From IMG/VR virus record IMGVR_UViG_3300025601_000007: a DNA stretch of 64,000 nt; one strand, 5' to 3'. Positions 1,990 to 59,909 of the stretch are shown piece by piece. The position numbers and the translations under genes are program-made. Position 1 is the first letter of the stretch. Each line of letters starts with the position of its first letter. The notes below the pieces were generated by a model that had not been told where the DNA came from, searched no databases, and saw nothing but the letters and a program-made list of their open reading frames with translations. This stretch comes from a virus. Lineage: Duplodnaviria > Caudoviricetes.

Positions 1990-4203
1990 CTACCGTTTAT
2001 TAAAGGTTAAGCTTTTAGTTAAAGGACTTAGTGTGGTGTCTGACTTTAAATCGAAAACCAAAAGATTCCCTTCGCTGTCATAACCAGTGTTTTTGTAATG
2101 TGTATCAGTTAACCCAATCTCATCGCACTTATTTTTAAGTTCATAGAAATCTTTTTTATCTATTTTTCCCGTGTTTAATTTTTGAGTTATAACGACATAG
2201 AAATTGCCTATATCTATTGGGTAGTCTCTTAGGTATAAACCATTTCCCTGAGGGTTATTAATTTTGTAAACAGCCATTATTTTAGCCACAAATGGAAGAG
2301 GATTTTGGTGAAAGTAATTACTGGTTTCCGCTTCTATTTTGCTCATTGTGACTTTACACATAAAGCCTTGACCTTCGCTTATCCATCCATCGTTTGTACG
2401 GCGAGTTTTTTTTAGAGTTATGCCTAAACTTGCCTCAATTGATTCAATTAATTCTTCTATGCGAATATTTTCACCTCTATAGTTGCTTAGGCTTTTGCTT
2501 GAAACATTTTCGTCTATGCTTGACCAAAAAGCTTTTGCATCGTCGCTTCTACCTTCTTTTGAAATTTGAAACCCATTGTCAGATGAAATTTTTTGGACAA
2601 CCTTAATTAGCAGGGTATATATCCCTTGTCTTCGGTATTTTTGATTTACTTCAGCTCCTCCTATTCTTAATGTGTTTGATTTAGAGTCAATATTAAAACC
2701 AACTCTCCCAACGGGTGTTAAATTCTCAGTTGAGGCTTTGATAGTTAAAGAACGATGTAAACCTGGTGTCTTAAATATTGAGATTGCTATTGGAGTCCCT
2801 TTTATAGTTGTCGCAATATATCCTATACCATTATATTTATCAATGATATTGTTTTCTTCTTTATATCTTTTCTCAGGAGGAATGTATTTATAATTGTATT
2901 TAGTCTTCAACAAATCGATATACTTCTGATTTTTTTCAGCCTTTGGATTCAAGTCGACAACATCAGTGTACATCTGAATGGCTTCGTCAGACCCAGTTTG
3001 TTCCGACAAGCTCTCAGCCTCGATTATTTTAATCTGCTCAGATTCAAATACAACAATCTCATCACCTGCTATTATCGAATCGTGCCCTTCTTGTTTTATC
3101 GCGTTAGTCCAATCATCTGAATTTTGGCCCAAGTCGGTAAGGTAGTCCATTCTTACGTCTTCTTCGAAGTCGTAAATCAGTTTGGGCTCAATCCCAATCT
3201 CTCGAAGTTCTTCTACTGAGAAATCGTTTACTCCTCTTCCGTATCTGGTGCCCTGAGTTTCTTCGTACCAGTCAGACACAATGTTTAGGTCTAAGCCTGT
3301 TTCTCCTTCGTATGTGTCAGGGTGCTTAGTTTTAAACTCTTCCCACCCACGGCTATGGTCTTTGTTTTTAGTGATAGATGCAAGAAGATTAAAAGCGACA
3401 ATGTCTTTTGTCTTTAATTGCAGAAGCAAGTCTTTAAGGTCAATAGCTACAACTGTTTTTTTTGGGAGATTTAATTTATATTTTTCTCCAATACGCACAA
3501 GGCTGCTTTCGTTGACATAAAAAGGGTTTTTCATATCCAAGCGTACAGAAAGAACTTCACCAGTTCCTCCGAAGAATTCTGAAAAGCTTCTGGCTTTTGA
3601 TTCTGTATCTGTAAAATAAAATCCCTTACCAAAATGGCCATCATTCCCACTGGTGGAGCCTATTTGTGATTTATCAAAAGAAGCAAACTTTCCCTTAGGG
3701 CCTACGCCATGATAATAAATGTTTTGGGTAGTATTTTCTTGAAGATACGACTTAATGTTTCCACTTCTAAAGAAGTCTACATCGAATGGATTAAGGCCTC
3801 TCTCTGGCTCGTGCCAAGGTGCTTTTGTTTTATGAATTTCGTCTTTGGTATCCACACCAACTATTCCTACATACCTTCCAAAAGAGCTAGAGCCTGGGGT
3901 TGGGTCAAAATATTCTTTTTTATCGGCATCATAAACCCACCAGTGTTCAATGGGGAAATCGTTTTCAAAAGCGTATCCCTTTACGGGATACAGATTTTCA
4001 TTAGGCCTGTTGTGAATGTAATGAAAGACATTAGTTTCACACTTATTTGACTTTGATTTATCACACTTGATTGACGTAACCTCTCCAGAGCTAAGGCTAA
4101 TACCATTTTTACTTTTGGATATAGCAACAATGTCTGGATGATTATGATAATCCTCTAAGACTTCTCTGATAAGTTTTCGTATGGAGTTTATTTCTGAAGC
4201 CAT
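1990..4203 (-). CDS. Polyvalent effector protein: transglutaminase/papain-like + ADP-ribosyltransferase + GNAT + kinase-like domains
   Basis: CETN..HWW..DPT (aa 55-102); YYHG..FGKGFYFT..KNP..GHDSII..EIVVF..QIK (aa 161-394); VNQKYRRQGIYT..RSDDAKAFW (aa ~485-562); CKVT..DTHYKN.GY..LVFD (aa ~590-720). Confidence 0.8.
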   Translation of the reverse strand: MASEINSIRKLIREVLEDYHNHPDIVAISKSKNGISLSSGEVTSIKCDKSKSNKCETNVFHYIHNRPNENLYPVKGYAFENDFPIEHWWVYDADKKEYFDPTPGSSSFGRYVGIVGVDTKDEIHKTKAPWHEPERGLNPFDVDFFRSGNIKSYLQENTTQNIYYHGVGPKGKFASFDKSQIGSTSGNDGHFGKGFYFTDTESKARSFSEFFGGTGEVLSVRLDMKNPFYVNESSLVRIGEKYKLNLPKKTVVAIDLKDLLLQLKTKDIVAFNLLASITKNKDHSRGWEEFKTKHPDTYEGETGLDLNIVSDWYEETQGTRYGRGVNDFSVEELREIGIEPKLIYDFEEDVRMDYLTDLGQNSDDWTNAIKQEGHDSIIAGDEIVVFESEQIKIIEAESLSEQTGSDEAIQMYTDVVDLNPKAEKNQKYIDLLKTKYNYKYIPPEKRYKEENNIIDKYNGIGYIATTIKGTPIAISIFKTPGLHRSLTIKASTENLTPVGRVGFNIDSKSNTLRIGGAEVNQKYRRQGIYTLLIKVVQKISSDNGFQISKEGRSDDAKAFWSSIDENVSSKSLSNYRGENIRIEELIESIEASLGITLKKTRRTNDGWISEGQGFMCKVTMSKIEAETSNYFHQNPLPFVAKIMAVYKINNPQGNGLYLRDYPIDIGNFYVVITQKLNTGKIDKKDFYELKNKCDEIGLTDTHYKNTGYDSEGNLLVFDLKSDTTLSPLTKSLTFNKR

Positions 4204-4775
4204 CTTTGATAGTCTTGCTTTGTTGCTTGAACAAGCGCTTTAATGTATTGGTCTTGGTTTAATTTTGCCTGAGTAACTCTATGATTACCATCATAGAGCA
4301 TAAACAAGTCTTGGTCAGAATCGTAATGGACCTCGATGGGTTTCGCATCAAATAAATCAACGCCCTTCTGGAATTCATATTCGTTTCCTTCGTCATCTGA
4401 CCAGCTTCCAGGAGTTGGGTCCAAGCCGTCTATTTTATCCACGGGTATCATCATTAAAAGCCCGTGCTCCAGATGATAATTTCCACCTAGCTTTACCATC
4501 TCAGCCTGAGTAAATACTTGTCGACTGAGAAGTTTGGAGTTGAGATTTGAGGGTGAACGTTTAGCAGGAGCTTGGTCCAAACCAAAGTGCGCCACCAATG
4601 CAGGAATATTAAATGCTAAAAACCGAATAAGGTCATTTTTGGAATCAGGCGAGTACAGACGTTTTTCACCTCTATAAAGATTTAGGTTGTCATCCAATGA
4701 AAAATCAGATAACTCAATCTCTAGAAGCGCTTTTCGTATAGCACGTCGAACCTCATTTACGGTGCCTTGAGCCAT
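4188..4775 (-). CDS. ParB/Sulfiredoxin-like domain protein with N-terminal VRRAIRKALLE tag
   Basis: C-terminal KPIEVH....LFMLYDGNHRVTQAKL...IKALV. Confidence 0.75.
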   Translation of the reverse strand: MAQGTVNEVRRAIRKALLEIELSDFSLDDNLNLYRGEKRLYSPDSKNDLIRFLAFNIPALVAHFGLDQAPAKRSPSNLNSKLLSRQVFTQAEMVKLGGNYHLEHGLLMMIPVDKIDGLDPTPGSWSDDEGNEYEFQKGVDLFDAKPIEVHYDSDQDLFMLYDGNHRVTQAKLNQDQYIKALVQATKQDYQRWLQK

Positions 4776-4785: not shown

Positions 4786-6561
4786 TTAAGAGTTTAAATT
4801 GTCTTTTTCACTTATTTTTTTATCGTACTGCTCTTCAGAGATGATGTTAGACAATAATTGTCGTCTCAGTTGTTTGTCTGGAAATCTTACGAAGTCAACT
4901 TTTTCTTCAACTTGAGCATCTTCAGAGAGGAGGTTTTCCATTCTCTCTTCAAACTGCTCCTCTGTAATTATCTTTGACAAGAGCTGCAATCTTAGCGTTT
5001 CTTGAATATTCTTCTTTTTGTTCATTATTTTTTTGTTTTGTGTTGCGTTCTTTGCCTTAGTCCAAACCGAGTGGTTTCTTGAGTTATTGGTTTTCATCAT
5101 GGTTGCTGACATTGAGCCCATACCATCGTTCATCCCATATCCACCACCACCAACTCTTCGCATATGCTCTTTAGTTCGCATGTTACTGTCGTGAGTTCCA
5201 GCCAAAGCTCTATCTACCCACATTTTAGCGGCATTACCGCCATGTAAATCCCACTCTGGACTTCCAGCTTGATTGTTGTCAAAGAATGCTTTTAGACGCT
5301 TCATTTGAGCATGCGTTTGAATTCCTCCGTCCGCAAGGTCTTGGGCTTTTCTTACTCCACTACCCTCGTTACCTCCATTAGCAGTTTGGCCGCCACTAGA
5401 GATAGCGCGACGAACAGTGCTTTTTACGTTTTCTGGCGGAGAAAAAGACTTATTATTATTGAAGCCAAAACGCTCCAGCAAAGCTTCTCTGATGAAATTA
5501 CGAATTTCACCAATACTTCTATCATGAAGGTCAAACGCCTTTAGTTTACCATTTTTATCGTAGCCCATATTTTCTGGACGCATATCAGAGGCTTCAATGC
5601 CTAATGCGCGAAATGCTCTATTGATATCATCTAGTTGGTCTGCGAATTCTTTCACATCGTCTGGGGCGTCTGTTTCGTCCCAGTCCATTGAGTGTGTATA
5701 CTGAATAGGCAACCCTTGCTCTTCCATGTAGCTGCTGACTTGATAGTAGTAATCCTCTATTTCAGAGTCAATTTCTAACTCCTCCATTAAAATCCACTTT
5801 TCTCCTTCAACAAGCTCGGCAGCATAAATATCTGCAAACACTTTAAATACAGGAGAGGTGTCTCCGATAAGCCGCTTAGCTATATCAAACTCGCTTACAG
5901 CCGTTGTTTTTTTTAAAACTCGGTCTCCATTGACATAATATGCCTCACCAAAATCTCCCTTACCCGCCCAACTGATTGAGTCGGGGTCGATGTTGTTTTT
6001 TGCATAAAAATCCTGTTGAGTCATACTGTACTCTGTTGTATTTTCGGTTAAAGACATAACTTGGTCATAGGTTTCTAATTTTACGAGCTTAGGTTTCGCT
6101 GAATGCTTTAATGCTATTTCATTTTCCCAAAACTGCGTGCTTCTCTCCCATAAAGAAACTGCCGTGTCAATGTCATCACTGCTAATCTTTGCAGTTAGCC
6201 GATAGAGAATATCTCCTCTTAATTTTACCTCCCTAGGGCTAATGTGTGTAAGCATGTCCCAAAATGCACGCTCTTCATGCTGTTTAGGATTTGAGTACCA
6301 GCTGATTCCTAAATTGGTTTCATTTAACTTCTCCCCTGGCTTCATTGCAATAAGGCGATAAATTAATGGATTTGAGGGGGTGTCACCAAACCCATGAGGC
6401 CAAAGGCTTTTTATAGACTGATGAAAATCTTCAACAGCACATTCTTTTGCCTCATCCAAAGAATTAGCCTCATCCCAACACCCGCTAGATTCGTAAACCC
6501 CAGTCAAACCCCACTCTGCTACTTCAAGTAGTTCATCATATGATAAGTTCTCGAATCTCAT
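4786..6561 (-). CDS. Polyvalent protein: R-S-E-type ART-like domain + protein-kinase-like domain + phage head-associated PPxxV domain + duplicated C-terminal motif
   Basis: IYR(69)..GIS(87)W..ENE(146-148); GKGDFG, VLKK, DMRPEN, AFD; SPPENV..GSGVRKAQDLADG..KRLKAFF..W.LHGG; LRxQLLSxIIxEEQ twice. Confidence 0.75.
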   Translation of the reverse strand: MRFENLSYDELLEVAEWGLTGVYESSGCWDEANSLDEAKECAVEDFHQSIKSLWPHGFGDTPSNPLIYRLIAMKPGEKLNETNLGISWYSNPKQHEERAFWDMLTHISPREVKLRGDILYRLTAKISSDDIDTAVSLWERSTQFWENEIALKHSAKPKLVKLETYDQVMSLTENTTEYSMTQQDFYAKNNIDPDSISWAGKGDFGEAYYVNGDRVLKKTTAVSEFDIAKRLIGDTSPVFKVFADIYAAELVEGEKWILMEELEIDSEIEDYYYQVSSYMEEQGLPIQYTHSMDWDETDAPDDVKEFADQLDDINRAFRALGIEASDMRPENMGYDKNGKLKAFDLHDRSIGEIRNFIREALLERFGFNNNKSFSPPENVKSTVRRAISSGGQTANGGNEGSGVRKAQDLADGGIQTHAQMKRLKAFFDNNQAGSPEWDLHGGNAAKMWVDRALAGTHDSNMRTKEHMRRVGGGGYGMNDGMGSMSATMMKTNNSRNHSVWTKAKNATQNKKIMNKKKNIQETLRLQLLSKIITEEQFEERMENLLSEDAQVEEKVDFVRFPDKQLRRQLLSNIISEEQYDKKISEKDNLNS

Positions 6562-6565
6562 TTAA

Positions 6566-7264
6566 TTACTCAATGCCTTTTTTCAAAAGCTTGTTTAATG
6601 TTTCTTTAATTGCAATTGGAAGCTGTGCAGGGTTTCCAAGCGTTTTTAGATGCCAGTTTATTTCATCATAAAAACCCATGTTATTAATAGGGGCACCAGA
6701 TGCTAATGTCCTTTTAATCGCGAGGTCTAATGCTTCTGCTGGTTTAATTGAGGTAGCAACTGAATTAGAACCTCCGTGCTTCTGCTCGTAATCGTCCACA
6801 AGAGAATTCACACTACGTCCACGGTGCATGCCTACAGATGCAGGAGTCGAGTATTGTGATTCATCTATTTTAGCTCTATTCTCTGACCCAGGGTCATGAA
6901 CAGCACATTTCTTCATTTTTTCGTACTCCTCTCTAAGTCTTTGCTCTGCGAGAGTTTCTGTTCTTTCTTTTTTTTTCATATTGCTTTCGTTAAACCCATA
7001 ACTCAATCCTTCGCTTGATGGGACTTCCTCAAATACCCACTCTACCCAATCCTTGCTAGGGCGGTTCCAACTTTCATTGCTTGTAATAAGATTATTTACG
7101 TACTCTTCAAATTTCTTTCTATGCTCAGGAGTGAGTAAAATGTATTCTCCCTCTGGCCATAGTCCTGCGCCTGTTCTGACTCCTTTTGTAAAGTTATTTG
7201 TAAACTCTTTAACTAATGCAAACTGTTTGGTTAGTCTGTTATAGACGATGTCTTTGGTTACCAT
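6566..7264 (-). CDS. Hypothetical protein, probable virion/head-associated
   Basis: 232 aa; contains FNE/IDE motifs and RTETLAEQRLREEY. Confidence 0.65.
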   Translation of the reverse strand: MVTKDIVYNRLTKQFALVKEFTNNFTKGVRTGAGLWPEGEYILLTPEHRKKFEEYVNNLITSNESWNRPSKDWVEWVFEEVPSSEGLSYGFNESNMKKKERTETLAEQRLREEYEKMKKCAVHDPGSENRAKIDESQYSTPASVGMHRGRSVNSLVDDYEQKHGGSNSVATSIKPAEALDLAIKRTLASGAPINNMGFYDEINWHLKTLGNPAQLPIAIKETLNKLLKKGIE

Positions 7265-7725
7265 GTCACCATCCCTATGCCCATGCTTCCTGAATAGTGT
7301 CTAATCGATTTAGGGATTGAGGACTGATACACCTTGTCAAGGTCCCAGGTGGATGTTCCTATCATTGAGTTTGTGGTGTTAGGCGGTTGGTCATCATCTC
7401 CCATTAGGTTCCCATCGTCATCAATAACCTCTTCTAATTCGCCTTCTTGTTCGGAAGATGTTTTCAAAAAATCTTTAATGAATTTTTTGTAAGGAGGTTT
7501 GCTTTCGCCTTCTAGAGAGCTAAACCACTCTTTAAACTTCGCAAACGAAGTAACTATAGAGGCTTTGGTTCCAAAGTTGGTTGAAAAATCAATACGGATG
7601 TAATCATCATCTTTGTCAAATGCTACATGTTCTACACCTCCAACAGTATCTTCAGATATGTGGTTGTAGCCATTGTCCCATTCAGACATAGATTCCAGCA
7701 AGAATTTTTTGATAGATTTTCCCAT
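7258..7725 (-). CDS. Hypothetical protein, probable virion/head-associated
   Basis: 155 aa, first gene after a CTATTTAC motif; N-terminus IKKFLLE. Confidence 0.7.
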   Translation of the reverse strand: MGKSIKKFLLESMSEWDNGYNHISEDTVGGVEHVAFDKDDDYIRIDFSTNFGTKASIVTSFAKFKEWFSSLEGESKPPYKKFIKDFLKTSSEQEGELEEVIDDDGNLMGDDDQPPNTTNSMIGTSTWDLDKVYQSSIPKSIRHYSGSMGIGMVTW

Positions 7726-7743
7726 GTATAAAGCGCTTTATAG

Positions 7744-7750
7744 TAAATAG
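7744..7750 (-). promoter_or_regulatory. Putative late-promoter motif CTATTTA
   Basis: TAAATAG on plus strand, about 20 nt upstream of start 7725. Confidence 0.6.
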
Positions 7751-10998: not shown

Positions 10999-11939
10999 TT
11001 AGAAGCCTGGCTGTTCAAAGTTGATTCCAGCAATCTCATCAGGCGCTGCTCCTGCGTTTGGTGCTAAATCTGTGAGATTTGACTCTAAAGCAGCATTAAC
11101 GCCACGTGTGAATCCTTTTCCAATGTCTATCAGAACAGATGGATTTGAACGCTCTTCCCACTCAAGCGTGTCAAGGTATTCTTTAAAAGCGCTCTCGCCT
11201 TCTTGGCTGGCATGTAAAGCCTGTTCACCTGCTCCAAGTGTGCCTTCACTTAATCTTTTTTTTTAGACTCCATTAGAGTCGCAACTTTCTCAGCCTGGAT
11301 TTTAGTCCATTCTAGCAATTCATTTCTATTCTTGAAGGTAAACCCTTCTTTCGGCATCTCAATTGCTTTAGCTATAGCTTCTGGAACTGCTTCATTTTGT
11401 GCATCTTCGTGAACATCTGCTCCGTTCATCCCGACATTTGTTGCCTGGTCTGAGCTTAGATTTCCTTTTGCACCGACAAAAGTTTTTGTCCCTTCGTCAA
11501 CTTCCTTGTCCATAGAGTTCATTTTTGCTTCGCCATCTTTATCAAATGGTTCACCTTTCTCTTTGGTAGGGTTTGATTTTTTTGAATCAAAGTTTGCAGT
11601 TTTTTGACCAGCTGTGGCCGATTGGTCACTTGAAAGGTCTCCACCTGCGTTAACTTTAACCGCAGTAGACGCCGCTCCGTCACAGCCAGCCTCTTTGTCC
11701 ATTGTATTCATGGCAACGTTCATAGGGTCTTTGGCAGCAACTTTCGCTGATTTAGTTTCCTCGTTTCCACCAATGTTCTTAACTTTGGCTTCTGGATTTG
11801 CGCTTGCTCCACCAACCATCTTGTTCATAACAACATCAGTTGGATTGCCTGCTGCTTTTATCTCGTCAGCCTCGATTAGCCTTTGAGCTTGTCCGTGGAT
11901 GTATCTTACGAGGTCTTCTTTTCTGATTTGCTTAGACAT
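10999..11939 (-). CDS. Low-complexity probable head/scaffold-type protein; 229-aa ORF (11250-11939) extended by 85 aa through a frame change at an A9 run
   Basis: ...TCT AAA AAA AAA GAT TAA; one extra A reads RLSEGTLGAGEQALHASQEG...NFEQPGF* to 10999, ending just before the terminator; internal LSSDQ and MNxMDKE repeats. Confidence 0.7.
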
Positions 11940-11970: not shown

Positions 11971-11978
11971 ATAAATAG
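11971..11978 (-). promoter_or_regulatory. Putative late-promoter motif CTATTTAT
   Basis: ATAAATAG on plus strand upstream of 11939. Confidence 0.6.
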
Positions 11979-14671: not shown

Positions 14672-15606
14672 TATTTTCGTTTTTTAGGACTAACTTTACG
14701 TTCTTTTAGAGCTGTAAAATTTCCTTTGGCTGTCTCAATTGTTGTGAGTTCGAAATATTTGTCGTCTTTCTTTAGCAGCTCAACAAGTGTTCCATCTTTT
14801 TTCTTGAATGTTACTCTTTCAAACACATATTTACTGCGTTCAGTCTTGATGTGCTCAGCAAGTACTGATTTTACAGTTTTTGATGCAATTTCTTCAGCAA
14901 TCTCACGAATAATAGCTTCATTCATGTGATACATATAATTCTGGTGCGCTTTATAGTCCTTACGCACCTCTGGAGTAGATTCTGCAACTGGAGAAACTTC
15001 TGAAGCAAACCCTTGTTTATCGCTAGCGAAATCTCTATATGAGAGAGCATTTGATTTAGCTGGTTGTTGTTGAACAGGCGACTGAGTAAGCGGCTGCTCC
15101 ATCTCAGTTTGTTTTTGTTGCAATCTGTTCTGTAATTGATTGGAAACATTCATTGCGTTCCAATTTGGGCCATAATTGTCAAGATTAGCTCCAATTTCTC
15201 CTCTTGGGCTCATTGAAAGCCTTGCACCACCACCGCTACCGTAGTCTGGGTCAAACATTTTATCGATAGCGCTCAACTCTGAGTCATTACTTCTATCCAC
15301 TCCTGATGAAAAATCAGCAACCGAAACTTTTTTGTCTTCGTCTACTGGGGCTCCGTTGTGGGGTTTTACTGGAATAGGATTGAATCCAGATGGTCCTGTT
15401 TTAGACTTTTTTGAAAACATTTCCTGGTACTTTTGACGAAACTGTCCACTAAGGACATCGCCATATTGTCTTCTAACGGCTGGTGAATGTGCGTTCCCAT
15501 TTACATCCCCCTCAGTAAGACCTCCTCCCACAGGTCCTTTGTACCCCAATGTCTGGAGTCTGTTATATCTTTCGTCTTGTAAGGTTTGATGATTCTGCTG
15601 ATTCAT
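14668..15606 (-). CDS. Hypothetical protein, probable virion-associated
   Basis: 312 aa, low-complexity middle; MNEAIIREIAEEIA motif. Confidence 0.7.
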   Translation of the reverse strand: MNQQNHQTLQDERYNRLQTLGYKGPVGGGLTEGDVNGNAHSPAVRRQYGDVLSGQFRQKYQEMFSKKSKTGPSGFNPIPVKPHNGAPVDEDKKVSVADFSSGVDRSNDSELSAIDKMFDPDYGSGGGARLSMSPRGEIGANLDNYGPNWNAMNVSNQLQNRLQQKQTEMEQPLTQSPVQQQPAKSNALSYRDFASDKQGFASEVSPVAESTPEVRKDYKAHQNYMYHMNEAIIREIAEEIASKTVKSVLAEHIKTERSKYVFERVTFKKKDGTLVELLKKDDKYFELTTIETAKGNFTALKERKVSPKKRKY

Positions 15607-15995
15607 TATCTAGGTAGTTCTGGGTTGTTTTCGTCATGGAGGCGAATGTTGCAAATTTTGAAATCATGTAGAAAGAAAAAACGGTGATATACTATTTTAT
15701 CTTCCGTAGATTCTTCTTCGTCAATACTCTCTCCCTTGTAAATAGCTTCAAATAGTGAATATTGGACGTCGCTCATTGTTAGACGACAAGTGAGAGAGCT
15801 GGGTCGAGATATTTCTCTAGATTTCCTGAATTTCACTTTTCCAACAAAATCGTTCATCATTATTTTGAACTCAATGTAACTTTCTTGTTCTACTTGTTGG
15901 TAAGTAACGGAGTCTCCATAGAACTCCTCAAACTTATTAGTGCTTCCATCGAACTCAAGGTCGACTAATGCTTCTATTGGTTGTTTTTTTGCCAT
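15606..15995 (-). CDS. Hypothetical protein
   Basis: 129-aa ORF, stop overlaps the next start. Confidence 0.7.
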   Translation of the reverse strand: MAKKQPIEALVDLEFDGSTNKFEEFYGDSVTYQQVEQESYIEFKIMMNDFVGKVKFRKSREISRPSSLTCRLTMSDVQYSLFEAIYKGESIDEEESTEDKIVYHRFFFLHDFKICNIRLHDENNPELPR

Positions 15996-16281
15996 AAGTG
16001 TAAATGATTACTGTGTCTAGTGTTTCACTCCACCAAGCGTAGTATGATTTGCTTCTTTTTGAGCCGCCTCTAAATAGCAAAGAGTCTATAAGAGAATTAA
16101 CGCTGAGGTTTTTAAATTTCTTCTTCAAAGATTTTATTGATTTAGCAATTTCTTTGTCGTTATCCACTTTTATCTCAGAAAGTTCTTTTTTCTGCTCTTT
16201 AAAATCTCTTTTAAGCCACGTGACAATTTCAGTTTTAAACTTGTCTTGGTTTATAAGGATTTGCTTAATGGTATGATTCAC
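15955..16281 (-). CDS. Hypothetical protein
   Basis: 108-aa co-oriented ORF. Confidence 0.6.
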   Translation of the reverse strand: MNHTIKQILINQDKFKTEIVTWLKRDFKEQKKELSEIKVDNDKEIAKSIKSLKKKFKNLSVNSLIDSLLFRGGSKRSKSYYAWWSETLDTVIIYTYGKKTTNRSISRP

Positions 16282-16317
16282 ACTTAATGATAGTTTTTCA
16301 AGGAACTATTTTAAAGC

Positions 16318-17007
16318 TTAAACAGCTGCTGCTCCACCAGCTCCTCCACCTGCAACCGCTCCAGGCGCTTCTCCAGGAGCAGAGCTTAATCCAGGAACCA
16401 TTCCTGGCTGTTCTTGGCCAGGAAGCATATCATCGGCAAAGTCTTCTGGGGCTTCCTCGTTTCCAGTAAGTTTTTGTCTCCATTCTTTTTGCCATTCGTT
16501 GTAGAAATTGTAAATCTCAGGGAACAATTCTTTGTTTTCCTGGGTCAGCTCAACCCCTTCTGTTTCAATCCTTAGCCCATTGGGAATGGAAAACATCCAT
16601 CGCATATTTCCTTCATTTCCAATTTGAATATATCCAGATGCAGTTACAGCAATCCCTTTTGGGTTTTGCGTGAATGACATGCTTTTTCTGTTCTTGCCCT
16701 GCTCATCGAATGTGACAGTTGTGTTTGGATATTTTGAAAGCGTCTCGGCAAACTTTCTTTCAAATTCATTTATTTCACCAGCATCTATCTGTGGAATTGC
16801 TCCCTCAGCTAGGCCATATATTTTGTTGAACCCCGTGTCTTCATAGCCGCCATTAAACAAGATATTTTCAAATTCTCTGTCGTCCATCTTTGGAGGCAAA
16901 TCAGCTTGAGGCTTATTGGCTGCTGCTGCTTTTTCTTGCTTTAGCTTGGATGCTGCTGCTGACCACACCTCTTTTCTGATTAAATCTTTCAAATCTTCTT
17001 TGTTCAT
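16318..17007 (-). CDS. Hypothetical protein, probable head-associated
   Basis: N-terminal KEDLKDLIRKEV tag; G/A/P-rich C-terminus. Confidence 0.7.
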   Translation of the reverse strand: MNKEDLKDLIRKEVWSAAASKLKQEKAAAANKPQADLPPKMDDREFENILFNGGYEDTGFNKIYGLAEGAIPQIDAGEINEFERKFAETLSKYPNTTVTFDEQGKNRKSMSFTQNPKGIAVTASGYIQIGNEGNMRWMFSIPNGLRIETEGVELTQENKELFPEIYNFYNEWQKEWRQKLTGNEEAPEDFADDMLPGQEQPGMVPGLSSAPGEAPGAVAGGGAGGAAAV

Positions 17008-17008: not shown

Positions 17009-17917
17009 TTAAATCTGGTTTATGAAGAACGCGCTCTTCTCCCATAAATACTTATACTGTAGCACAATCGTCTTGCGAATCATGTCCTTAACTTCTTTCT
17101 TGGACATGTATTCACCTTTTTTTGTTTGTGTTTCAAATTCTTTTTTGACAAACTTTCTAAGCTTGGCCTCTGTCCACGCATCAACTGATTCGTTTAAGCC
17201 GACAGTGCTGTAAGAGCCTTTTTCAAATGGTTGTGGGTCAACGTATCCAACTTCTTTGTTTGACTTGTTTTTTTGAGATTTTCCTGTTGAATTAAAAATA
17301 GATTTTGCTGGCTCAAAGGAAAGAACAAGCTCTTTTAAAAAGTCTTCAATTTCTTTTATGTCAGAAGGCATTAAAGGTCCGTTATATTGTTTTGGAACCT
17401 GTTCTATAAGAATATCCAGAGCCATCTTCAAAGCTGGCTCAAATTGATTCGTTCCTTTATCTGGGTACTCTTCAATCCAAGCAAGATGAACTCTGGTAAT
17501 TACACCTTCTTCGTAAAGCTTGTTTGAAAAGTCTTCCTTTTGTTCAGAGTCCCAATCCTCTGTTTCATTCATACTAAACGCATCAAGAGTTTGCGCGTCG
17601 CCCTGATTGTTAATGGCATACATCTTCTTCCCTGGAGTAGACTTTGCTGCGTCAAACTTTTTCTTACTAGCAGTAATAACGCTAATAAAGGTGGAGATTA
17701 AGCTCTGCATCTCTTCCCTCCTGAGGCCAGATGAAAATTTTAGCTTTAAATCAGGGCCTGACTGAGTAAATAATTCTACAGTAGCTTTATACGTTCGTAC
17801 AAACCACGACTTATCAACACTTAAGTCAACACCAACTTCCTTAGCTATATCCGCAGCAGTTTCATCCCTTGTCAGATATTTAAAAAGTATCTCTACTGGA
17901 TATGTTTTATTTTCCAT
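17009..17917 (-). CDS. Hypothetical protein, probable head-associated
   Basis: GLNE followed by KLRKFVKKEF and VKDMIRKTIV tags at the C-terminus. Confidence 0.7.
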   Translation of the reverse strand: MENKTYPVEILFKYLTRDETAADIAKEVGVDLSVDKSWFVRTYKATVELFTQSGPDLKLKFSSGLRREEMQSLISTFISVITASKKKFDAAKSTPGKKMYAINNQGDAQTLDAFSMNETEDWDSEQKEDFSNKLYEEGVITRVHLAWIEEYPDKGTNQFEPALKMALDILIEQVPKQYNGPLMPSDIKEIEDFLKELVLSFEPAKSIFNSTGKSQKNKSNKEVGYVDPQPFEKGSYSTVGLNESVDAWTEAKLRKFVKKEFETQTKKGEYMSKKEVKDMIRKTIVLQYKYLWEKSAFFINQI

Positions 17918-18838: not shown

Positions 18839-18846
18839 ATAAATAG
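18839..18846 (-). promoter_or_regulatory. Putative late-promoter motif CTATTTAT
   Basis: ATAAATAG upstream of endolysin start 18818. Confidence 0.6.
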
Positions 18847-19386: not shown

Positions 19387-19742
19387 AAGACGGAGCGTAA
19401 AACCCATTCATCGCGCAGCGTGGATGGGATGAAAGCGACCTTATTCAGCAAATATAACAATTGTTTTTGATAAAGACTTGATGTTTTTGGTTTAAACGCA
19501 TATATTTGTTATAACAAACTTCGATAACCAAGAGTTTGTTGTTCTTTGACGTGGTATAAGGTTGCTCTGCAAAATCTTGCAGTTTGCATAAAACCAAAAA
19601 GTAAAACTGAATTAAAAACATTCACGTCTGGTTGTGGGATGCAGTCGGACGATAATCAAAAACGGGATGAGGCGTTGCTATTAGGTGAGTCTACGACCCC
19701 CGAAGCCCAACCCATCGGCTCTGCCGTGGGTGGGTAGTTCAC
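19387..19742 (+). mobile_element. Non-autonomous IS200/IS605-type cassette, 356 bp (copy A), retaining the TnpB 3' end/omegaRNA
   Basis: Follows TTTAT; left-end hairpin CCCATTCA..TGGATGGG; TATATTTG at 19501; ends ...EAQPIGSAVGG* coding remnant, right-end hairpin CCCAACCCATCGGC-TCT-GCCGTGGGTGGG, then TTCAC; identical to 27611-27966. Confidence 0.9.
19501..19508 (+). promoter_or_regulatory. Bacteroidota-type -7 box TATATTTG inside cassette A
   Basis: TAnnTTTG with TTG ending 20 nt upstream (19478-19480). Confidence 0.6.
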
Positions 19743-20302
19743 TATACTCCGAAATCGCCTCCCTGGCCACTTCTCGCTCCAGATACAAAATCTTTAAAGC
19801 TAGCCCCACCTTTGGCGGCTTGCCTATTAAATGTGTTAAAGTCCATTGGTTGAGCTAATTGTTGCAGGTCTTTGTAAAAAATTGCAACATCAGTAATGCC
19901 ATGTCTTTTAGCGATTTCAGCAGAATCTTGACGAAGCGTTTGTAGCAAGCCTTTCGAAATCTCAACATAATCTGCTGTGCGAGCCTTATAGGCTTGAGTT
20001 AATTGAGCGAGTTCTTGAGATTTTATTTGCTTGTATTCTTTTTTTGCTTTTTCATACTTGCCCATTCCGAAAATTTCTTCGATATCTTGCTCTTGAGTTA
20101 TACCAAGCGTGGCAGCAGTGTGTTCGTCAAGGTTTTGTCCTTTATAAACATCTCGCATTTCCTGCTCTACCTTTGCAAGCTTGTTTTCAAGAAGCTTTAC
20201 TTTGCTGTCAGCAGCACTTTCTTGAATCTTATTAAATTTAAGCTTCATCGCTTCCTCTTTAATAAGAGCATTGAGTTTTTCTTTAGAAATTTTAAGTTTC
20301 AT
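19742..20302 (-). CDS. Hypothetical protein, probable head-associated
   Basis: MKLKISKEKLNALIKEEAMKL tag followed by IQE; late motif upstream. Confidence 0.7.
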   Translation of the reverse strand: MKLKISKEKLNALIKEEAMKLKFNKIQESAADSKVKLLENKLAKVEQEMRDVYKGQNLDEHTAATLGITQEQDIEEIFGMGKYEKAKKEYKQIKSQELAQLTQAYKARTADYVEISKGLLQTLRQDSAEIAKRHGITDVAIFYKDLQQLAQPMDFNTFNRQAAKGGASFKDFVSGARSGQGGDFGV

Positions 20303-23773: not shown

Positions 23774-24149
23774 ACAGTTTTGATATTGATTGTAAGTCGT
23801 CGCCAGTTAATTCTCTAATAGCTGCTTGTTGTTCGTGATGACGCTCACGGATTACATCAGACACAGTCTTCCCGTCTTTGGAGGCCTGGAAAAGGTCTAC
23901 TGCGAAACGGTCGTCTGTATATAGGTCTTTGTCGATTCGATAGAACACTTTAGCTGTCATGGTCGGCAGCTTGGCCCCTTCTTTCTCCTCTAGTTTAGTA
24001 TAGCAAAAGCCAACCAAGTCCTCCTCGTTCTTGAGTTGGGTTAAGGGCTGGCTTATTGGTGTTAGTACACGAGCGGTTGAATCTCCGTCTATCGCTTGCA
24101 GCTCTTTACGGATGTATTTCTCTATGTCTTTTGAATTATAATATGGCAT
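23718..24149 (-). CDS. Hypothetical protein
   Basis: 143-aa ORF. Confidence 0.65.
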   Translation of the reverse strand: MPYYNSKDIEKYIRKELQAIDGDSTARVLTPISQPLTQLKNEEDLVGFCYTKLEEKEGAKLPTMTAKVFYRIDKDLYTDDRFAVDLFQASKDGKTVSDVIRERHHEQQAAIRELTGDDLQSISKLYERTDLDSSGAGEDEGVQ

Positions 24150-25862: not shown

Positions 25863-26477
25863 ATGGGACACGTATCCTCAATTTATCTTCATAAACTAAA
25901 CAGACTTGCTGGAATTGTTTCAGAGGCACTTAACACTGCCACTGCACCTGACCCTTTTGCGAGGTCCAACGAGCGTGTTCCTTTTAATGTCGACCTGATG
26001 CAGCAAGCAATCGAACAAGGTCTTGTGGTTGGTCTTCTGTTTCAATCCAACAACACCAAGTACAAGATGCCTGTAGCCAAGTACCGCAACATCATGCCTG
26101 TGGCTATGGGGTATGATAAAGACGGTAGATTAGTTTTTCGTGGGGTCCACGTTAAAGGTCAGAGTGAAAAGAAGGCTCGACAGACTGGCGTTAGAAGCGC
26201 AGAGGCATCGAACGAATGGAGGCTGTTTTTGGCATCAAATGTAAAAAGCATGTTCTTTACTGGGGGTTTCTTTTCCCAGGTGCCAATTGGAGGGTTTAAA
26301 TCAAATGACAGTGACATTACGCGTCAGATAGTATCGTTTGATGCGGGGCGAGCAAAAGCTTACCAAGACGAATATAACAAGATGTCGCAACCGCAGTCCG
26401 ACTACAGTCCTGAGTTGAACGAGAAGTCTAGAGTTATAAAGAGTTTGTTTAAGAAAGATTATCGAAGGAAGTGGTAA
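25863..26477 (+). CDS. WYL-like domain protein with N-terminal RLAGI tag
   Basis: AIEQGLVVGLLF..YRNIMPVAMG..LVFRG..WRLFLASNV; CTATTTAG at 25851. Confidence 0.7.
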   Translation: MGHVSSIYLHKLNRLAGIVSEALNTATAPDPFARSNERVPFNVDLMQQAIEQGLVVGLLFQSNNTKYKMPVAKYRNIMPVAMGYDKDGRLVFRGVHVKGQSEKKARQTGVRSAEASNEWRLFLASNVKSMFFTGGFFSQVPIGGFKSNDSDITRQIVSFDAGRAKAYQDEYNKMSQPQSDYSPELNEKSRVIKSLFKKDYRRKW

Positions 26478-40188: not shown

Positions 40189-40202
40189 TGAAAAGACATT
40201 CA

Positions 40203-44733: not shown

Positions 44734-44747
44734 GATTCTTATTTTCT

Positions 44748-44755
44748 ATAAATAG
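44748..44755 (-). promoter_or_regulatory. Putative late-promoter motif CTATTTAT
   Basis: ATAAATAG upstream of 44733. Confidence 0.6.
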
Positions 44756-44808
44756 TGACGCTGAATTATCTTTCTATGTCTACGTCGAATTTGGTGGATA
44801 AAATATTT

Positions 44809-46563
44809 TTACCCGTCTGTTCCATCGTCAATTGGAGATGCGATTTCAAACGGGATTCCTGTCCATAGTGGAGACATGTAACTTGTATTTGCTCCTCCAC
44901 ACACGGGGTTGAAATCATTGAATTTTATAAATTCAAATCCTCCATAATCAGTTTCAGACTCTGTGTCATCTAATAATATAGCTCCAAGCACTCTAATATT
45001 GTATACATTTTCTTCTCCACTGAATTCATTTGTGCATAAGCTGCCGTTGTATCTGGTTAAAACTGATACGTAATATCCAGCTAGATAGTCTTTGTTGACT
45101 TGGGATTCAAAAACATTGCCGTAATTAGTGAATTCGAAAGTCCCTATCTCGACTTCCCCGCCGCTCCCGTTTTTAAGAACGAAGCCATGTGAGTACATAT
45201 TGTCTCCGTCTGGGTTTGTATATCCTTCATTGTTGTATTTAATGTTGATGCTGTATAAGGATTGAGCGTAAAGCCTCTCGATGGCCTCTGTTCCTGTTTG
45301 AGGAATGATTTCACCAGCCTCAATTAGCTGAGAGTTTGATGGCAGCGAAATTTCAAAATCTACGCCACTTACTGGGACTTCAAAAGTTCCTCCTGGCTGC
45401 ACTAAGGTATTATCCCATAAAATATCAAATTCTCCGTTATTTGTTATCTTTAAAGAAATGTCATCTAACCCACCGTTGAATGATGGCCCAAACCTGTATG
45501 TGGGGAAATTATCATAATTGGCTTCTGCAAAACCATTTTCTTCATTGCTAACATTTTCTAAGTACACATTTCCGTATTTCAGAGCCCATCCATTCTGTGT
45601 CTCGTTTAAGTCTTGTGGGATTTCGCTAGAAACTGGGCTTCTTAACTGGAGCTGGCCGCCTATTGTTGGTCCTTTTTGTCTATAAAAGTCTCCAAAATTT
45701 ATCGTTGTCCATCTTCTGTTTATAGAGAGCGAATTGTTTTCCACATACATTAGTGCGTTTTTATAAGCTCCTTGATTTGTATCTAACTCCACTTTTATAG
45801 TGTTTTCTATTGTGACAACTATGACTGGAGAAGTGTTTAAAACAGAGTTTGCTATATTTTCAATAAGCACATCTTTTGTCTGTTCTCCAATCTCAAATTG
45901 AACAGGTATGGATGTTATTAAGCCTGCAAATCTCCCATCAAAATTAGGTGTACTAAGTCGATAGAGTTTTACGCTTAAACGTTCGACTCCGCCCTCAGAC
46001 TGATTGTTTAAGCCAAGTTTTAATGTAACGGGGCTGTCTGTATCATAGAAGTAGCTCAGATATTGAGTTATTCCATTTGACAAGAGAGAGCTGTCTTCTG
46101 TCTCTAAGAAAGAAACTTTGTTAAATATTGTTTCATCCTCAATGACAACTGTTATTGTAGAGTTTGATTCTTTTGGTAAACAATTTATTGCTCCAACCAA
46201 AGCTAAACTGAAATCTTCGTCTCTTCCGACTTCTAGCTCAAAATCTTTTTTAAGCTCCACAAACACAGTTTTGATTTGCTCTCCCTCTGCCCAATTTAAA
46301 ACAATTGGCAAGTTTATCCCTACGTCTTCAAGTCCAGCTGCGCCAGGAATAAATACCACACTGACGCTTTCTCTCCCTTTTTCAGAAGAAGCAAGTAGTG
46401 ATACATCTATCCTAATGGAGGTGTTCTCTGGAGCTCGTCTAAATGTTTCTGTAAAAAACACAGTCGGAACCTTTGTCTCTGAATAGAGAAAATTCTCATT
46501 TAACTCCAGGTTTGTATCTACGAAACACTGTAGTATTGTTGATATCTTATTTGACTCCTCCAT
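44809..46563 (-). CDS. Structural protein with Calx-beta-like repeats
   Basis: LNWAEGEQIKTV.V.L..D.ELE...EDFSLAL and VQFEIGEQTKDV. Confidence 0.65.
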   Translation of the reverse strand: MEESNKISTILQCFVDTNLELNENFLYSETKVPTVFFTETFRRAPENTSIRIDVSLLASSEKGRESVSVVFIPGAAGLEDVGINLPIVLNWAEGEQIKTVFVELKKDFELEVGRDEDFSLALVGAINCLPKESNSTITVVIEDETIFNKVSFLETEDSSLLSNGITQYLSYFYDTDSPVTLKLGLNNQSEGGVERLSVKLYRLSTPNFDGRFAGLITSIPVQFEIGEQTKDVLIENIANSVLNTSPVIVVTIENTIKVELDTNQGAYKNALMYVENNSLSINRRWTTINFGDFYRQKGPTIGGQLQLRSPVSSEIPQDLNETQNGWALKYGNVYLENVSNEENGFAEANYDNFPTYRFGPSFNGGLDDISLKITNNGEFDILWDNTLVQPGGTFEVPVSGVDFEISLPSNSQLIEAGEIIPQTGTEAIERLYAQSLYSINIKYNNEGYTNPDGDNMYSHGFVLKNGSGGEVEIGTFEFTNYGNVFESQVNKDYLAGYYVSVLTRYNGSLCTNEFSGEENVYNIRVLGAILLDDTESETDYGGFEFIKFNDFNPVCGGANTSYMSPLWTGIPFEIASPIDDGTDG

Positions 46564-47833: not shown

Positions 47834-47856
47834 CTATTATAAATAACCTGTTTCAA

Positions 47857-53984: not shown

Positions 53985-54112
53985 CTACTTGCTTTTCAAT
54001 AAATATGCGCGAGGAAATTTATAATCTAAATAAAGCAGCCGTCTAACTTATAGTAGATTTAAGCTTTTTAAGAGAAATCATGTTCGAATCTAAAGGTCCT
54101 GACAAAGAAAAA

Positions 54113-56378: not shown

Positions 56379-56417
56379 ATAAATAGAGGCGGGAAAAAAA
56401 GACCGCTATCTATTTAT
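56379..56417. promoter_or_regulatory. Back-to-back CTATTTAT motifs (minus 56379-56386; plus 56410-56417)
   Basis: Flank the divergent gp25-like and endonuclease genes. Confidence 0.6.
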
Positions 56418-57570: not shown

Positions 57571-58988
57571 GCACTTATAAAATATACCCCTCGAAAGGTA
57601 ATACGATAGCATCGGGAGCTTTCGCCAACTTCAATTCCAGTCAAAATGCTGTGACGGACTTGTTTTATGGTGGAGGTGTTGAAACCTCTGTTAATCTTAG
57701 GAACGCATTCTCTAGATTTCTTGTCCAGTTTGACTTAGCTGGCTTGACCTCAAAGATTGCAAACAGAGAGATTATGTCTGGGTCAGTGATATCTTATAGA
57801 CTTAGAATGAAGAACTCCATCCCTGCAGAAAGACTTCTGGAGAAGAATTGGGAGTTTGATAAGCTACAGCGACAGATAGCTGCTTCTTTTGATTTGCAAG
57901 TATTCCCTGTGAACAAAGCTTGGGACGAAGGTCGCGGGTATGATTTGGTTAAAGAGGATTATCTTGTGAAACAAAAAGGAAATCTCCTTATTTCGGGGTA
58001 CTCGAACTGGAATTCGGCTTCTATCGCAACTGCGTGGGATGCTGCTGGGGTTTACACTAATCCATCTGCTTCCACGACAAGCTACGGAGAACAACACTTT
58101 GCTATTGGAAACGAAGATTTAAACATCGATGTAACCGACATTGTTGCTGACTGGTTGTCTGGTGGTTCCGCAAACTATGGAATGATGGTTGCGTACCGAC
58201 GAGATTATGAGGCTTTAAGTAGCGATACTCGAACGATTGCATCTTTCTTTACCCATAAGACCAATTCAGCATTTAAACCCTATATAGAGGTCTTATATGA
58301 CCAAACTATAAAAGATGACCGAAATCAAGTCACCAACAACAGAGCTTCAAGATTGTTTTTGTACACATTCTCTGGGAATACTCCTGCTAATTATTCGACA
58401 GCGAGCACAGTAAACATTTTAAACTCCGCTGGGTCTGCTGTTCACTCTGGATTGGTTCCAACTCAATTAGAGAAAGGCGTATATTACATCGATGTGTTTA
58501 TGAGCGGTACAACTCGTGGTCAACAATATAGAGATGTTTGGCAAGGCGTTTCTTTTAACACTGTATACGATACTCAAGATATCACTCAATACTTTACGAT
58601 TCAAGACAACTACTACACTGGGACACAGTTCCAGCCAGCTATAAATGATTACGTTCTTGATATTTACGGACTTCCAGAGGGCGGGATTGTTTATACAGAC
58701 CAGCAGATTAGAGTTTACTGTAACATGCGAGCTGCATATTCGACTCAGCCTCCAAAAAATAATTACTCAATCAAATACAGATTGTACATGAACAATCAGA
58801 TAGAGGCAGTTGGGTGGACCGAAGTGAATCAAGCAGTTATTAACAAGAAGAAACTAAACTATCTTACGTTGGACACAAGCTGGCTGCTTCATAATCAAAC
58901 ATATCAATTGCAGTTTCAAATAGAGGAGTGGGGCACCTCAAGAGTTTATCCTAAGACTATTGATTTCAAAGTGCAAAGACCTTTCTAA
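57567..58988 (+). CDS. Structural protein with DNRLRE/disaggregatase-like domain
   Basis: SRFLVQFDL..WDEGRGYD..SNW..IDVTDIV.DWL.G..NYGMM..KPYIEV. Confidence 0.7.
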   Translation: MSTYKIYPSKGNTIASGAFANFNSSQNAVTDLFYGGGVETSVNLRNAFSRFLVQFDLAGLTSKIANREIMSGSVISYRLRMKNSIPAERLLEKNWEFDKLQRQIAASFDLQVFPVNKAWDEGRGYDLVKEDYLVKQKGNLLISGYSNWNSASIATAWDAAGVYTNPSASTTSYGEQHFAIGNEDLNIDVTDIVADWLSGGSANYGMMVAYRRDYEALSSDTRTIASFFTHKTNSAFKPYIEVLYDQTIKDDRNQVTNNRASRLFLYTFSGNTPANYSTASTVNILNSAGSAVHSGLVPTQLEKGVYYIDVFMSGTTRGQQYRDVWQGVSFNTVYDTQDITQYFTIQDNYYTGTQFQPAINDYVLDIYGLPEGGIVYTDQQIRVYCNMRAAYSTQPPKNNYSIKYRLYMNNQIEAVGWTEVNQAVINKKKLNYLTLDTSWLLHNQTYQLQFQIEEWGTSRVYPKTIDFKVQRPF

Positions 58989-59909
58989 TGCAAAATCAAA
59001 TTATAGATGAGGGATTGTCGGAAGAAAAAGGCCTAAACGAACTGACCAGCGGCGTGTTGGTGGCTCTAGGTAATCAAATTGCTCAGGAGATTAATCAAAA
59101 CAAAGGGCACTTGGACTTAGGAACATATGGTCTCGTTCATACAGGCGGTATATCTCAAAAGTATCAAGAGAAATTAGGTCCAAAAGTTAATTCATTTTGG
59201 GAACAGCTGGACCTGCTGGTGTCAATTGTAAGAAGTAACGCAACTGGTTCGGCCCAATACATACACTCACCTAAAGCTGATGGCACATATAATTACGGTG
59301 CAACAAAGCGTATTGAGCTATTTGTGTCCCCAGAAGACATGCAAGAACTGGCAGATAAAGTGATTGAGTATAAAGATGAAGTCACAGGAATTGATGTATA
59401 TTTCAAGCTGTACTACTTGTTCCATAGTTTATTGCTGCATGAATTACGTCATGCGTTTGATGACATGCGTACCGATGGAATGATATTTAAGAATAAAAAA
59501 AACTATAAGGTTCCAAGATAAGCACGGCCACATGAATACTGAGCCAACAAGTGATGAAGACCCAGAAGTATTCAAAAAACAAAGAGGAAAAGCTTACCTT
59601 CAGCAACCTCACGAAATATGGGCTAGAGCATCTCAGGCAATGCATAATCTAAGATACACAGTTGGCACAGCCGAGTTTGATGAGACCATTAGAATGATTC
59701 CTTTAAAGCTTGTGGTGACACAATTCAGGACTAACTTTAAATGGTGGAATAATATTTCTGATAAAGCAAAAAGAAGACTTGTTAAAGCAGTTGCAAATCA
59801 GTGGAACGAAGTGGATATTGATTTAAAGCAAAAGAATGCATCAAACAGCGTGGAGCTCGCTGAGCTACGCCGTTACATCAGAAGTGTCGTGGCTGAGGTG
59901 GTCAGCTAA
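58988..59909 (+). CDS. Zincin-like metallopeptidase split by a frameshift at an A8 run (ORFs 58988-59521 and 59532-59909)
   Basis: LLLHELRHAFD in the first ORF; YLQQPHEIWARASQ in the second; removing one A at 59495-59502 fuses them (..KNKKTIRFQDKHGHMNTEP..). Confidence 0.7.

Follow-up and report, generated by a model that had tools for sequence, protein, structure and literature searches.

Here, we describe a short peptide tag that recurs on otherwise unrelated proteins encoded in a 64,000-nucleotide stretch of viral DNA (Caudoviricetes; IMG/VR record IMGVR_UViG_3300025601_000007), referred to throughout as the window. The source is an uncultured T4-like giant phage of Bacteroidota. The tag, which we call class A, has the core (L/I)-(R/K)-x-(L/I)-I-(R/K)-E-x-(L/I) and its start usually lies 3–12 residues into the protein. 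The helix is amphipathic and heptad-like, flanked by basic and acidic residues. It probably acts as a T4-type capsid-targeting and processing leader, an assignment to which we give a probability of roughly 65% and in which binding to the core, cleavage, packaging, and injection are steps that we infer. In the proposed mechanism, the short helix would dock a protein onto the scaffolding core as the prohead assembles, a gp21-type prohead protease would cut after the Glu of an I-x-E motif, releasing the cargo inside the head, and the released cargo would enter the host together with the DNA. The predicted cargo set comprises an ADP-ribosyltransferase (ART) that parallels T4 Alt, a kinase-like fusion, a protein resembling ParB and sulfiredoxin, and a portal/MuF-associated domain that we call domain X. 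A preliminary description of this DNA had proposed a modular address label of the same kind as the T4 capsid-targeting sequence (CTS). Sequence comparisons lend support to this proposal through the head genes of relatives, the match of conserved positions, the presence of one tag per polypeptide, the swapping of leaders, and the distribution of the tag on domain X.

At 38% G+C, the window is densely coding, with the minus strand predominant. Searches of the INPHARED phages at the DNA and protein levels, with the window and with its 370-residue protein 33500-34612, gave no match; the same protein led to 40 IMG/VR contigs at 50–58% identity. Five of these contigs, whole or nearly whole and syntenic with the window across most genes, are the relatives compared here (G001–G005). 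A 153-kb relative is 52% complete according to CheckV, implying a genome of ~300 kb. Four of the five syntenic relatives encode a Peptidase_S77 protein (E = 1e-33) and a Gp23 capsid protein (E = 1e-61), and the head genes of the relatives (T4-type prohead protease, Gp23-type capsid) stand in T4 gene order. The closest cultured phage is Flavobacterium phage vB_FspM_immuto (hereafter, immuto; host Flavobacterium sp. LMO8), with a capsid protein that is 44% identical; a gp21-family protease, a scaffold, and a gp23-type capsid protein are also encoded by this phage.

Position and Statistics of the Class A Tag

The preliminary description had listed ten strings and placed them at termini or domain junctions. 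All ten were found at their respective open reading frames (ORFs), six of them at residues 6–23, one at an internal site, and three at or near a C-terminus. A strict pattern, [ILV]R..[ILV]R[EK].[ILVA], taken from the three best window copies, matches the window three times versus 0.06 expected from whole-protein shuffles. The same pattern matches the relatives G001 and G003 six times, every time at residues 3–9. Shuffles of these two relatives that were restricted to the first 25 residues and kept their composition gave 0.06 matches, with 0 of 2000 reaching six, and this comparison of real with shuffled N-termini places the motif above background. The core hydrophobic-[RK]-x-x-I-[RK] is enriched 11-fold in the first ten residues.

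We also applied a scoring matrix, trained on the relatives only and on a set containing no orthologue of 1990-4203, to ~20,000 window positions. The top four window positions fall in 19742-20302, 1990-4203, and 16318-17007 and at the internal site of 4786-6561, each with <0.4 matches expected. Matrix matches per 1000 positions amount to 4.1 at N-termini, 0.83 at C-termini, and 0.10 at internal positions (~40-fold and ~8-fold over internal). The individual copies, with their matrix scores, are as follows.

4153..4182, minus strand: class A tag IRKLIREVLE, residues 8–17 of 1990-4203; score 16.5, 0.04 expected
4719..4751, minus strand: class A tag VRRAIRKALLE, residues 9–19 of 4188-4775; score 6.6
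5473..5505, minus strand: internal class A tag IRNFIREALLE at a domain junction, residues 353–363 of 4786-6561; score 12.0
16966..16992, minus strand: class A tag LKDLIRKEV, residues 6–14 of the 229-residue protein 16318-17007; score 15.0
20240..20275, minus strand: class A tag LNALIKEEAMKL, residues 10–21 of the 186-residue protein 19742-20302; score 16.9
24096..24125, minus strand: weak class A tag IEKYIRKELQ (absent from the preliminary list), residues 9–18 of 23718-24149; score 6.2
17066..17161, minus strand: two copies near the C-terminus of 17009-17917, LRKFVKKEFE (residues 253–262; score 7.5) and VKDMIRKTI (residues 276–284 of 302; score 9.2)
61540..61566, minus strand: C-terminal LQKLISKHI (likewise absent from that list), residues 310–318 of 321 in 61528-62493; score 9.9
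11871..11912, minus strand: degenerate leader LVRYIHGQAQRLIE, residues 10–23 of 11250-11939; score −10, insignificant alone
11268–11318, minus strand: second helix, at the C-terminus of 11250-11939
59865..59900, plus strand: C-terminal LRRYIRSVVAEV, residues 112–123 of 125 in 59532-59909; score −3.0, unsupported individually

The LKDLIRKEV tag of 16318-17007 is kept in the G001 and G002 orthologues, the VKDMIRKTI copy of 17009-17917 is kept in the G002 orthologue, and the G002 orthologue of 19742-20302 has VKQLIKEEA at the same place. Tagged proteins stand at the syntenic place of 19742-20302 in G001 and G003 and were not joined to its family by BLAST. For the weak members 4188-4775 (6.6) and 23718-24149 (6.2), support comes mainly from homologues: those of 4188-4775 start with MNSLRKKIRESL and ..NNIRKIIREEL, and orthologues of 23718-24149 have a helix at the same place, divergent in sequence. 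Both termini bear a clear motif in the G005 and G001 orthologues of 11250-11939, and no orthologue of 59532-59909 was found among the relatives. The listed strings of 11250-11939 and 59532-59909 and the LRxQLLSxIIxEE repeats of 4786-6561 are, taken singly, indistinguishable from chance.

Thirty-two N-terminally tagged proteins represent 27 families that have no similarity outside the tag. The consensus over 34 instances is (L/I)(R/K)x(L/I)I(K/R)Ex(L/I), with Leu or Ile at P7 in 29 of 34 and at P4 in 27 of 34, Ile at P3 in 27 of 34, and Glu at P1 in 25 of 34. Because the Arg, Ile, and Leu codons of the tag copies vary freely among synonyms, conservation of the tag is at the peptide level. More than 85% of ORFs lack the tag. 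In T4, no N-terminal matrix match reaches a score of ≥9 among 305 ORFs, and immuto has at least seven N-terminal tag matches, including proteins starting with MKKSQLREIIRKEL and MKKSQLRQIIKEAL. Tagged genes of immuto (MW353176) include those at 81481-81900, 102250-102825, 102836-103315, 111140-111610, and 113144-113902. In the literature, we found no description of such tags in metagenomic T4-like or Bacteroidota phages and no virion proteome of immuto.

Leaders on Split, Fused, and Orthologous Proteins

A 16-nt overlap joins genes 4188-4775 and 1990-4203, whose products carry one tag each. The same split recurs among database sequences, in a cluster on 16 contigs that matches the ART protein exactly and in a 99%-identical ParB-like copy; the ART protein is found on a 218-kb contig. 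In L075, a close, syntenic contig, both are present as one 720-residue ORF with an N-terminal tag only and with unrelated sequence at the junction. Its sequence aligns with the full length of 4188-4775 (62% identity) and with residues 1–166 of 1990-4203 (49%), the latter being the part ahead of the ART domain; no ART domain was found in this ORF. Leaders can also differ as whole units between orthologues, as in the 25863-26477 family, which has the class A leader YIRGLIREILSE in G003 and a second type of leader, class B, in the window and G001. The presence of one tag per polypeptide, split or fused, together with this swapping of whole leaders, suggests that a leader is needed on each separate chain.

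Class B corresponds to LNRLAGIVSE, which the preliminary description had noted as a second recurring motif. It proved to be a genuine second leader class, ..LxxLAG(I/V)(I/V)SE, recurring in seven proteins.

25887..25925, plus strand: class B leader ..LHKLNRLAGIVSE, residues 9–21 of 25863-26477; LNRLAGIVSE is residues 12–21

Class B leaders start at residues 11–13 in 25863-26477, its G001 orthologue, two immuto proteins, and the database proteins P0050, P0051, and P0067; the G001 orthologue has a divergent form, LAELCGLIPD. All proteases of the relatives start with ..KYIISEF. At least two further leader types, class B and the ..YIISE.. type found on the protease and core proteins, thus appear to have the same role as class A and to be interchangeable with it.

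A further leader was observed in a different phage lineage. In L074, a 40.6-kb Logan contig (SRR10746999), MK[YH]LKTYExF heads nine unrelated ORFs, at 924, 8774, 9169, 9795, 10001, 12034, and 12957 on the plus strand and at 15062–16453 on the minus strand. This leader is reminiscent of the T4 CTS (KTYQEF). The contig encodes a ParB-like homologue (59% identity) and an ART homologue (51%) that lie two small ORFs apart, both led by MK[YH]LKTYExF (MKHLKTYESF on the ART homologue).

The tag that is internal in 4786-6561 is N-terminal in the ~175-residue orthologues of G001 and G002, and in L075 it is preceded by a different, 139-residue domain. A profile search with domain X, which follows this tag, returned 646 cluster representatives. 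In close homologues of domain X, the tag always stands directly in front of it; distant members are fused to Portal_Mu, Phage_portal, or Mu_F, and the tag is found in 0 of 48. Since the members fused to portal or MuF lack the tag, it seems to have been added to a domain that elsewhere lies inside the head.

Comparison with the T4 Capsid-Targeting Sequence and Competing Explanations

The CTS of T4 is MKTYQEFIAE (PMC8442874). Its residues 4 and 7 act in targeting and residues 8 and 10 in processing, the same ten residues serving both functions, and gp21 itself starts with a site matching its own cleavage logo (PMC9026906). Diverse internal proteins of T-even phages share only the CTS (PMC3012670), and it has been suggested that CTS targeting is general among T4-like phages (PMC9026906). 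The conserved positions P7, P4, P3, and P1 of the class A tag correspond to Y4 and F7 (targeting) and I8 and E10 (processing) of the CTS, in the order hydrophobic-x-x-hydrophobic-I-x-E. In the T4 record NC_000866, the corresponding strings are YQEFIAE (IPII, IPIII), INELLRE (gp24), MELITE (Alt), QLLIE (gp21), and EQLIAE (gp22). The gp24 leader ..INELLRE has nearly the same form as IRKLIRE, but gp24 is a shell protein and not cargo. In the relatives, tagged genes lie inside the head modules, at the gp67/68 position and directly after the capsid gene.

As an a priori test, we applied a T4-derived pattern to the first 27 residues of proteins. In T4, it matches 18 times versus 8.4 expected and recovers IPII, IPIII, gp24, gp68, and Alt. 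Across the window, the five relatives, and immuto, 76 matches were obtained versus 29.9 expected. Additional window strings fit the T4-type core pattern.

7687..7713, minus strand: N-terminal IKKFLLESM, residues 5–13 of 7258-7725
61099..61131, minus strand: N-terminal LLGIIAESIEE, residues 16–26 of 60646-61176; matrix score 7.1
4831..4995, minus strand: two C-terminal repeats of 4786-6561, LRLQLLSKIITEE (nt 4957–4995) and LRRQLLSNIISEE (nt 4831–4869), each with L-S-x-I-I-x-E

The orthologues of 7258-7725 read ..YLGILAE and ..YLGILSE, and no orthologue of 60646-61176 was found among the relatives. The fit of the two repeats has no independent statistical support.

The class A tag and the CTS are alike in being short N-terminal leaders on unrelated proteins, with hydrophobic residues at P7 and P4, Ile or Leu at P3, and Glu at P1, and, for the tag in the relatives and immuto, in occurring alongside a gp21-type protease and a gp23-type capsid. 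They differ in that the present tag is basic, (L/I)RxxIRE versus KTYQEFIAE, and is also found at internal and C-terminal sites. It is carried by far more families (27 in four fragments), large enzymes included, and several leader classes coexist. The parallel extends to one cargo protein: T4 Alt is a packaged and injected ADP-ribosyltransferase that is processed at both ends by gp21 (PMC9026906), and the first tagged protein of the window is likewise an ADP-ribosyltransferase, although of the ART-PolyVal clade and not the Alt/VIP2 clade (PMC5512222).

Several observations weigh against the assignment as a T4-type leader. The T4-derived pattern is not significant in the window alone (5 vs 2.4 expected, P = 0.09), and by itself this loose pattern is unspecific, because it also matches the DNA polymerase and ligase of T4. 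The scaffold, core, protease, and capsid proteins have 0–3 T4-type matches per protein versus 0.3–1 expected, which is unconvincing. There is no sequence homology of the tag to MKTYQEFIAE, the likeness being one of pattern only, and the tag starts anywhere from residue 3 to residue 15, at a variable distance from Met1 that is unlike the fixed CTS. Approximately 29% of the instances have Lys or Gln at P1 and would therefore be uncuttable at that site. Because the tag always accompanies domain X in its close members, the helix there could partly be a structural element. Finally, the head module lies outside the window, so the protease of the window phage itself is deduced from relatives whose proteins are 40–60% identical.

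Some of these features would suit a helix that serves as a docking or oligomerization module, joining separate enzymes in a noncovalent complex or at some other hub, with no capsid targeting and no cleavage. Such a module could be an amphipathic, heptad-like helix with charged flanks, would be tolerated internally and at C-termini, would account for the ~29% of instances without the Glu for T4-type cleavage, and would be in line with the lack of clear enrichment in scaffold proteins. We nevertheless regard it as unlikely, as it leaves unexplained the coincidence of the conserved positions with the targeting and processing residues of the CTS, the tag on proteins at the gp67/68 position and at the protease N-terminus, and the loss of the tag from domain X exactly where portal or MuF is fused. 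It is more improbable again that the tag is only an extended prohead-protease site, that is, a removable propeptide on proteins that reach the head otherwise. Conservation within the motif is highest at I-x-E, and similar short N-terminal sites occur in gp24, gp21, gp22, and gp67 of T4, but one tag per polypeptide and the swaps of whole leaders suggest a need on each chain, and in T4 the ten CTS residues do both jobs (PMC9026906). An artefact of chance or composition (N-termini rich in Lys, Arg, Ile, Leu, and Glu, A-rich codons, generic helices) or a signal at the mRNA level is largely refuted and very improbable: dipeptide-type patterns such as I[RK] and [IL]xK are somewhat more frequent at N-termini and three listed strings are insignificant singly, yet the composition-preserving N-terminal shuffles fall far short of the six observed matches, the Arg, Ile, and Leu codons vary, the motif also occurs at internal and C-terminal positions, and it is missing from T4 and from most ORFs.

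Two further candidates were discarded. An mRNA-level signal as such was ruled out by the synonymous codon variation, and a phage-nucleus import or secretion signal was dropped in view of the T4-like lineage and a helix that is charged and amphipathic, not hydrophobic. A complex prediction that paired the G001 prohead protease with the N-terminal 40 residues of one tagged protein gave no answer (score 0.00).

The CTS principle is already known from T-even phages, and the advance lies in the breadth of the present case and in its specific variant. What is new is the basic consensus, the coexistence of interchangeable leaders, the internal and C-terminal use, the evidence from split and fused chains and from portal and MuF fusions, and a cultured phage that carries the tag. 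More tentatively, Bacteroidota T4-like phages may use a code of interchangeable address helices (class A, class B, YIISE), placed N-terminally, at junctions, or C-terminally, in place of fusion to portal or MuF. A tag of 10 residues might then turn any new enzyme into injected counter-defense cargo, and the head protease might cut fusions at internal tags into separate effectors. The enzymes named in connection with such a code are the ADP-ribosyltransferase and the ParB/Srx-like, kinase-like, CCA-adding, and 2H-phosphoesterase/Acb1-like proteins.

Were the capsid-targeting assignment true, the injected proteome of T4-like Bacteroidota phages, a large group with few cultured members, would become predictable from sequence alone. 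Dozens of hypothetical genes would become early-acting effectors delivered with the DNA, counter-defense enzymes likely included, and a phage could gain effectors by adding a tag rather than by building a giant polyvalent protein. The tag could also find use in packing foreign proteins into capsids in systems other than E. coli/T4. With the same tag present in the cultured immuto, the idea can be put to a direct test.

Cargo Proteins, TATTTAY Boxes, and Neighboring Genes

The preliminary description had assigned ART, ParB, WYL, and zincin cargo to the tagged proteins. The ART label stood on a Pfam match and the ParB label on the predicted fold; WYL and zincin found no support in Pfam and PHROGs searches. 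In particular, the HExxH of 58988-59521 fits no zincin model, and this protein is untagged. The main cargo genes of the window are as follows.

1990..4203, minus strand: 737-residue ART cargo; ART-PolyVal domain, residues 162–238, Pfam PF18760, E = 2.5e-11
4188..4775, minus strand: 195-residue ParB-N/sulfiredoxin-like cargo, domain at residues 80–195; AlphaFold2 (AF2) pLDDT >90 over the domain
4786..6561, minus strand: 591-residue fusion of a kinase/APH-like region, the tag, domain X (residues ~364–510), and two C-terminal repeats

No counterpart of the ART protein was found in five relatives, and no relatives of 4188-4775 were found in IMG/VR. In the AF2 model of 4188-4775, the tag is a helix (residues 3–22) that is followed by a disordered linker and then by the folded domain, and nearly all of the top 50 Foldseek matches to this model in the PDB are folds of the ParB-N/sulfiredoxin superfamily (e.g., 7bnk, E = 8e-4). 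The region of 4786-6561 at residues ~180–348 contains a GxGxxG-like loop and D-x-R-P-E-N, and its structural neighbors in the ESM Atlas carry Pkinase/APH. These predicted structures offer a lead, and only that, to a protein-kinase/APH-fold domain that would be cargo fused ahead of the tag. The kinase-like region is missing from the G001, G002, and L075 orthologues. A weak LPD1 match in 59532-59909 (E = 0.004) lies below the cutoff, and Pfam and PHROGs searches found no families for most tagged proteins or for the structural block 33500-46563. Most tagged proteins have one recognizable domain each.

Tagged enzymes are also encoded by the relatives, namely a nucleotidyltransferase fused to a 2H phosphoesterase (LigT/Acb1-like, E = 6e-7) and, separately, enzymes of the poly(A)-polymerase/CCA-adding type.

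G001 129089-130780: tagged enzyme
G001 132214-133596: tagged enzyme
G002 71738-73285: tagged enzyme

These are candidate prepackaged RNA-repair or antisignaling effectors. Enzymes of the types seen among the cargo (ART-PolyVal, ParB/Srx-like, CCA-type, 2H-phosphoesterase) would be useful on arrival in the host.

The cargo recalls the polyvalent proteins of phages and conjugative elements, for which delivery alongside the DNA has been predicted (Iyer et al. 2017; PMC5512222). The two sets share ART-PolyVal, ParB-like, and weak LPD1 domains and, as an indication of packaging, fusion to portal or MuF (PMC5512222). They differ in that the window domains are separate or fused in pairs, each with its own short tag, versus one giant multidomain chain. 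With respect to the 2–15 disparate domains of polyvalent proteins, 4786-6561 joins its kinase-like region to domain X, and L075 fuses the ParB-like module to the N-terminal ~165 residues of the ART protein, which precede its ART domain. The giant phages phiKZ, 201phi2-1, and SPN3US likewise have many head-internal ejection proteins and a gp21-related protease that cuts after Glu, but their propeptides are mostly >100 residues long and end in (A/S/G)-x-E, and a short shared tag is undescribed there (PMC5694885, PMC10052503).

Short terminal peptides are used for cargo loading outside phages as well. The cargo-loading peptides of encapsulins, which are short, usually C-terminal, and uncleaved, send diverse enzymes into the HK97-fold shell of a nonviral compartment. 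They are like the class A tag in being short terminal peptides and unlike it in sequence, in their usual end, in escaping cleavage of the kind proposed for the tag, and in serving a nonviral compartment.

A TATTTAY box stands ahead of the capsid, scaffold, protease, tail, and baseplate genes, and it is more common before tagged genes than before others (12/27 vs 105/482; odds ratio 2.9, p = 0.016). Every window tag lies behind such a box. Sense-strand TATTTAT or TATTTAC boxes occur 12–40 nt ahead of structural and tagged genes, with 33 copies in the window versus 17.5 expected.

7743-7749, 11971-11977, 17044-17050, 18839-18845, 20337-20343, and 24798-24804, minus strand: TATTTAT/TATTTAC boxes
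40106-40112, 44748-44754, 47839-47845, 53999-54005, and 56379-56385, minus strand: further TATTTAT/TATTTAC boxes

TATTTAC at 7743-7749 heads the gene run from 7725 to 1990, and the TATTTAT boxes at 17044-17050, 20337-20343, and 11971-11977 are tied to the tagged genes 16318-17007, 19742-20302, and 11250-11939, respectively. Read in reverse complement, the box gives the T4 late box TATAAATA, and it is a candidate late promoter of this lineage. A 27-bp element, TCATCC-N15-ACTCAT, is not enriched in the window, with five matches (≤2 mismatches) versus 5.8 expected. The gene run that includes the tagged 17009-17917 and 16318-17007 is headed by a lysin gene (17907-18818, minus strand; PG_binding_1 and Amidase_2) with a TATTTAT box in front.

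Other genes of the window and its relatives have unusual structures. The prohead protease of G005 (89489-91336; L086 and L064/L065) has 615 residues versus the usual ~222, and its Peptidase_S77 match falls in two pieces ~1.1 kb apart within a single open frame; the gene may contain an intein or other insertion. In the window, 20359-23376 (minus strand) encodes a 1005-residue SNF2-family helicase with a LAGLIDADG/Hom_end homing-endonuclease-like insert at residues ~386–459, within the helicase domain. The insert is probably an intein, and the relatives align only to residues 513–1003. The 1158-residue ORF 28468-31944 (minus strand) combines an SbcD-like phosphoesterase (residues 1–391) with an SbcC/Rad50-like ATPase, a fused equivalent of gp47 and gp46 that is kept in the relatives. 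Finally, 35756-37864 and 37895-40093 (minus strand) are adjacent paralogues of 702 and 732 residues that have a single-gene counterpart in G001–G003. They share a conserved N-terminus with their 157-residue neighbor 35246-35719, and none of the three matched a Pfam or PHROG family. The two paralogues are probably a major tail or virion component that is duplicated in the window phage.

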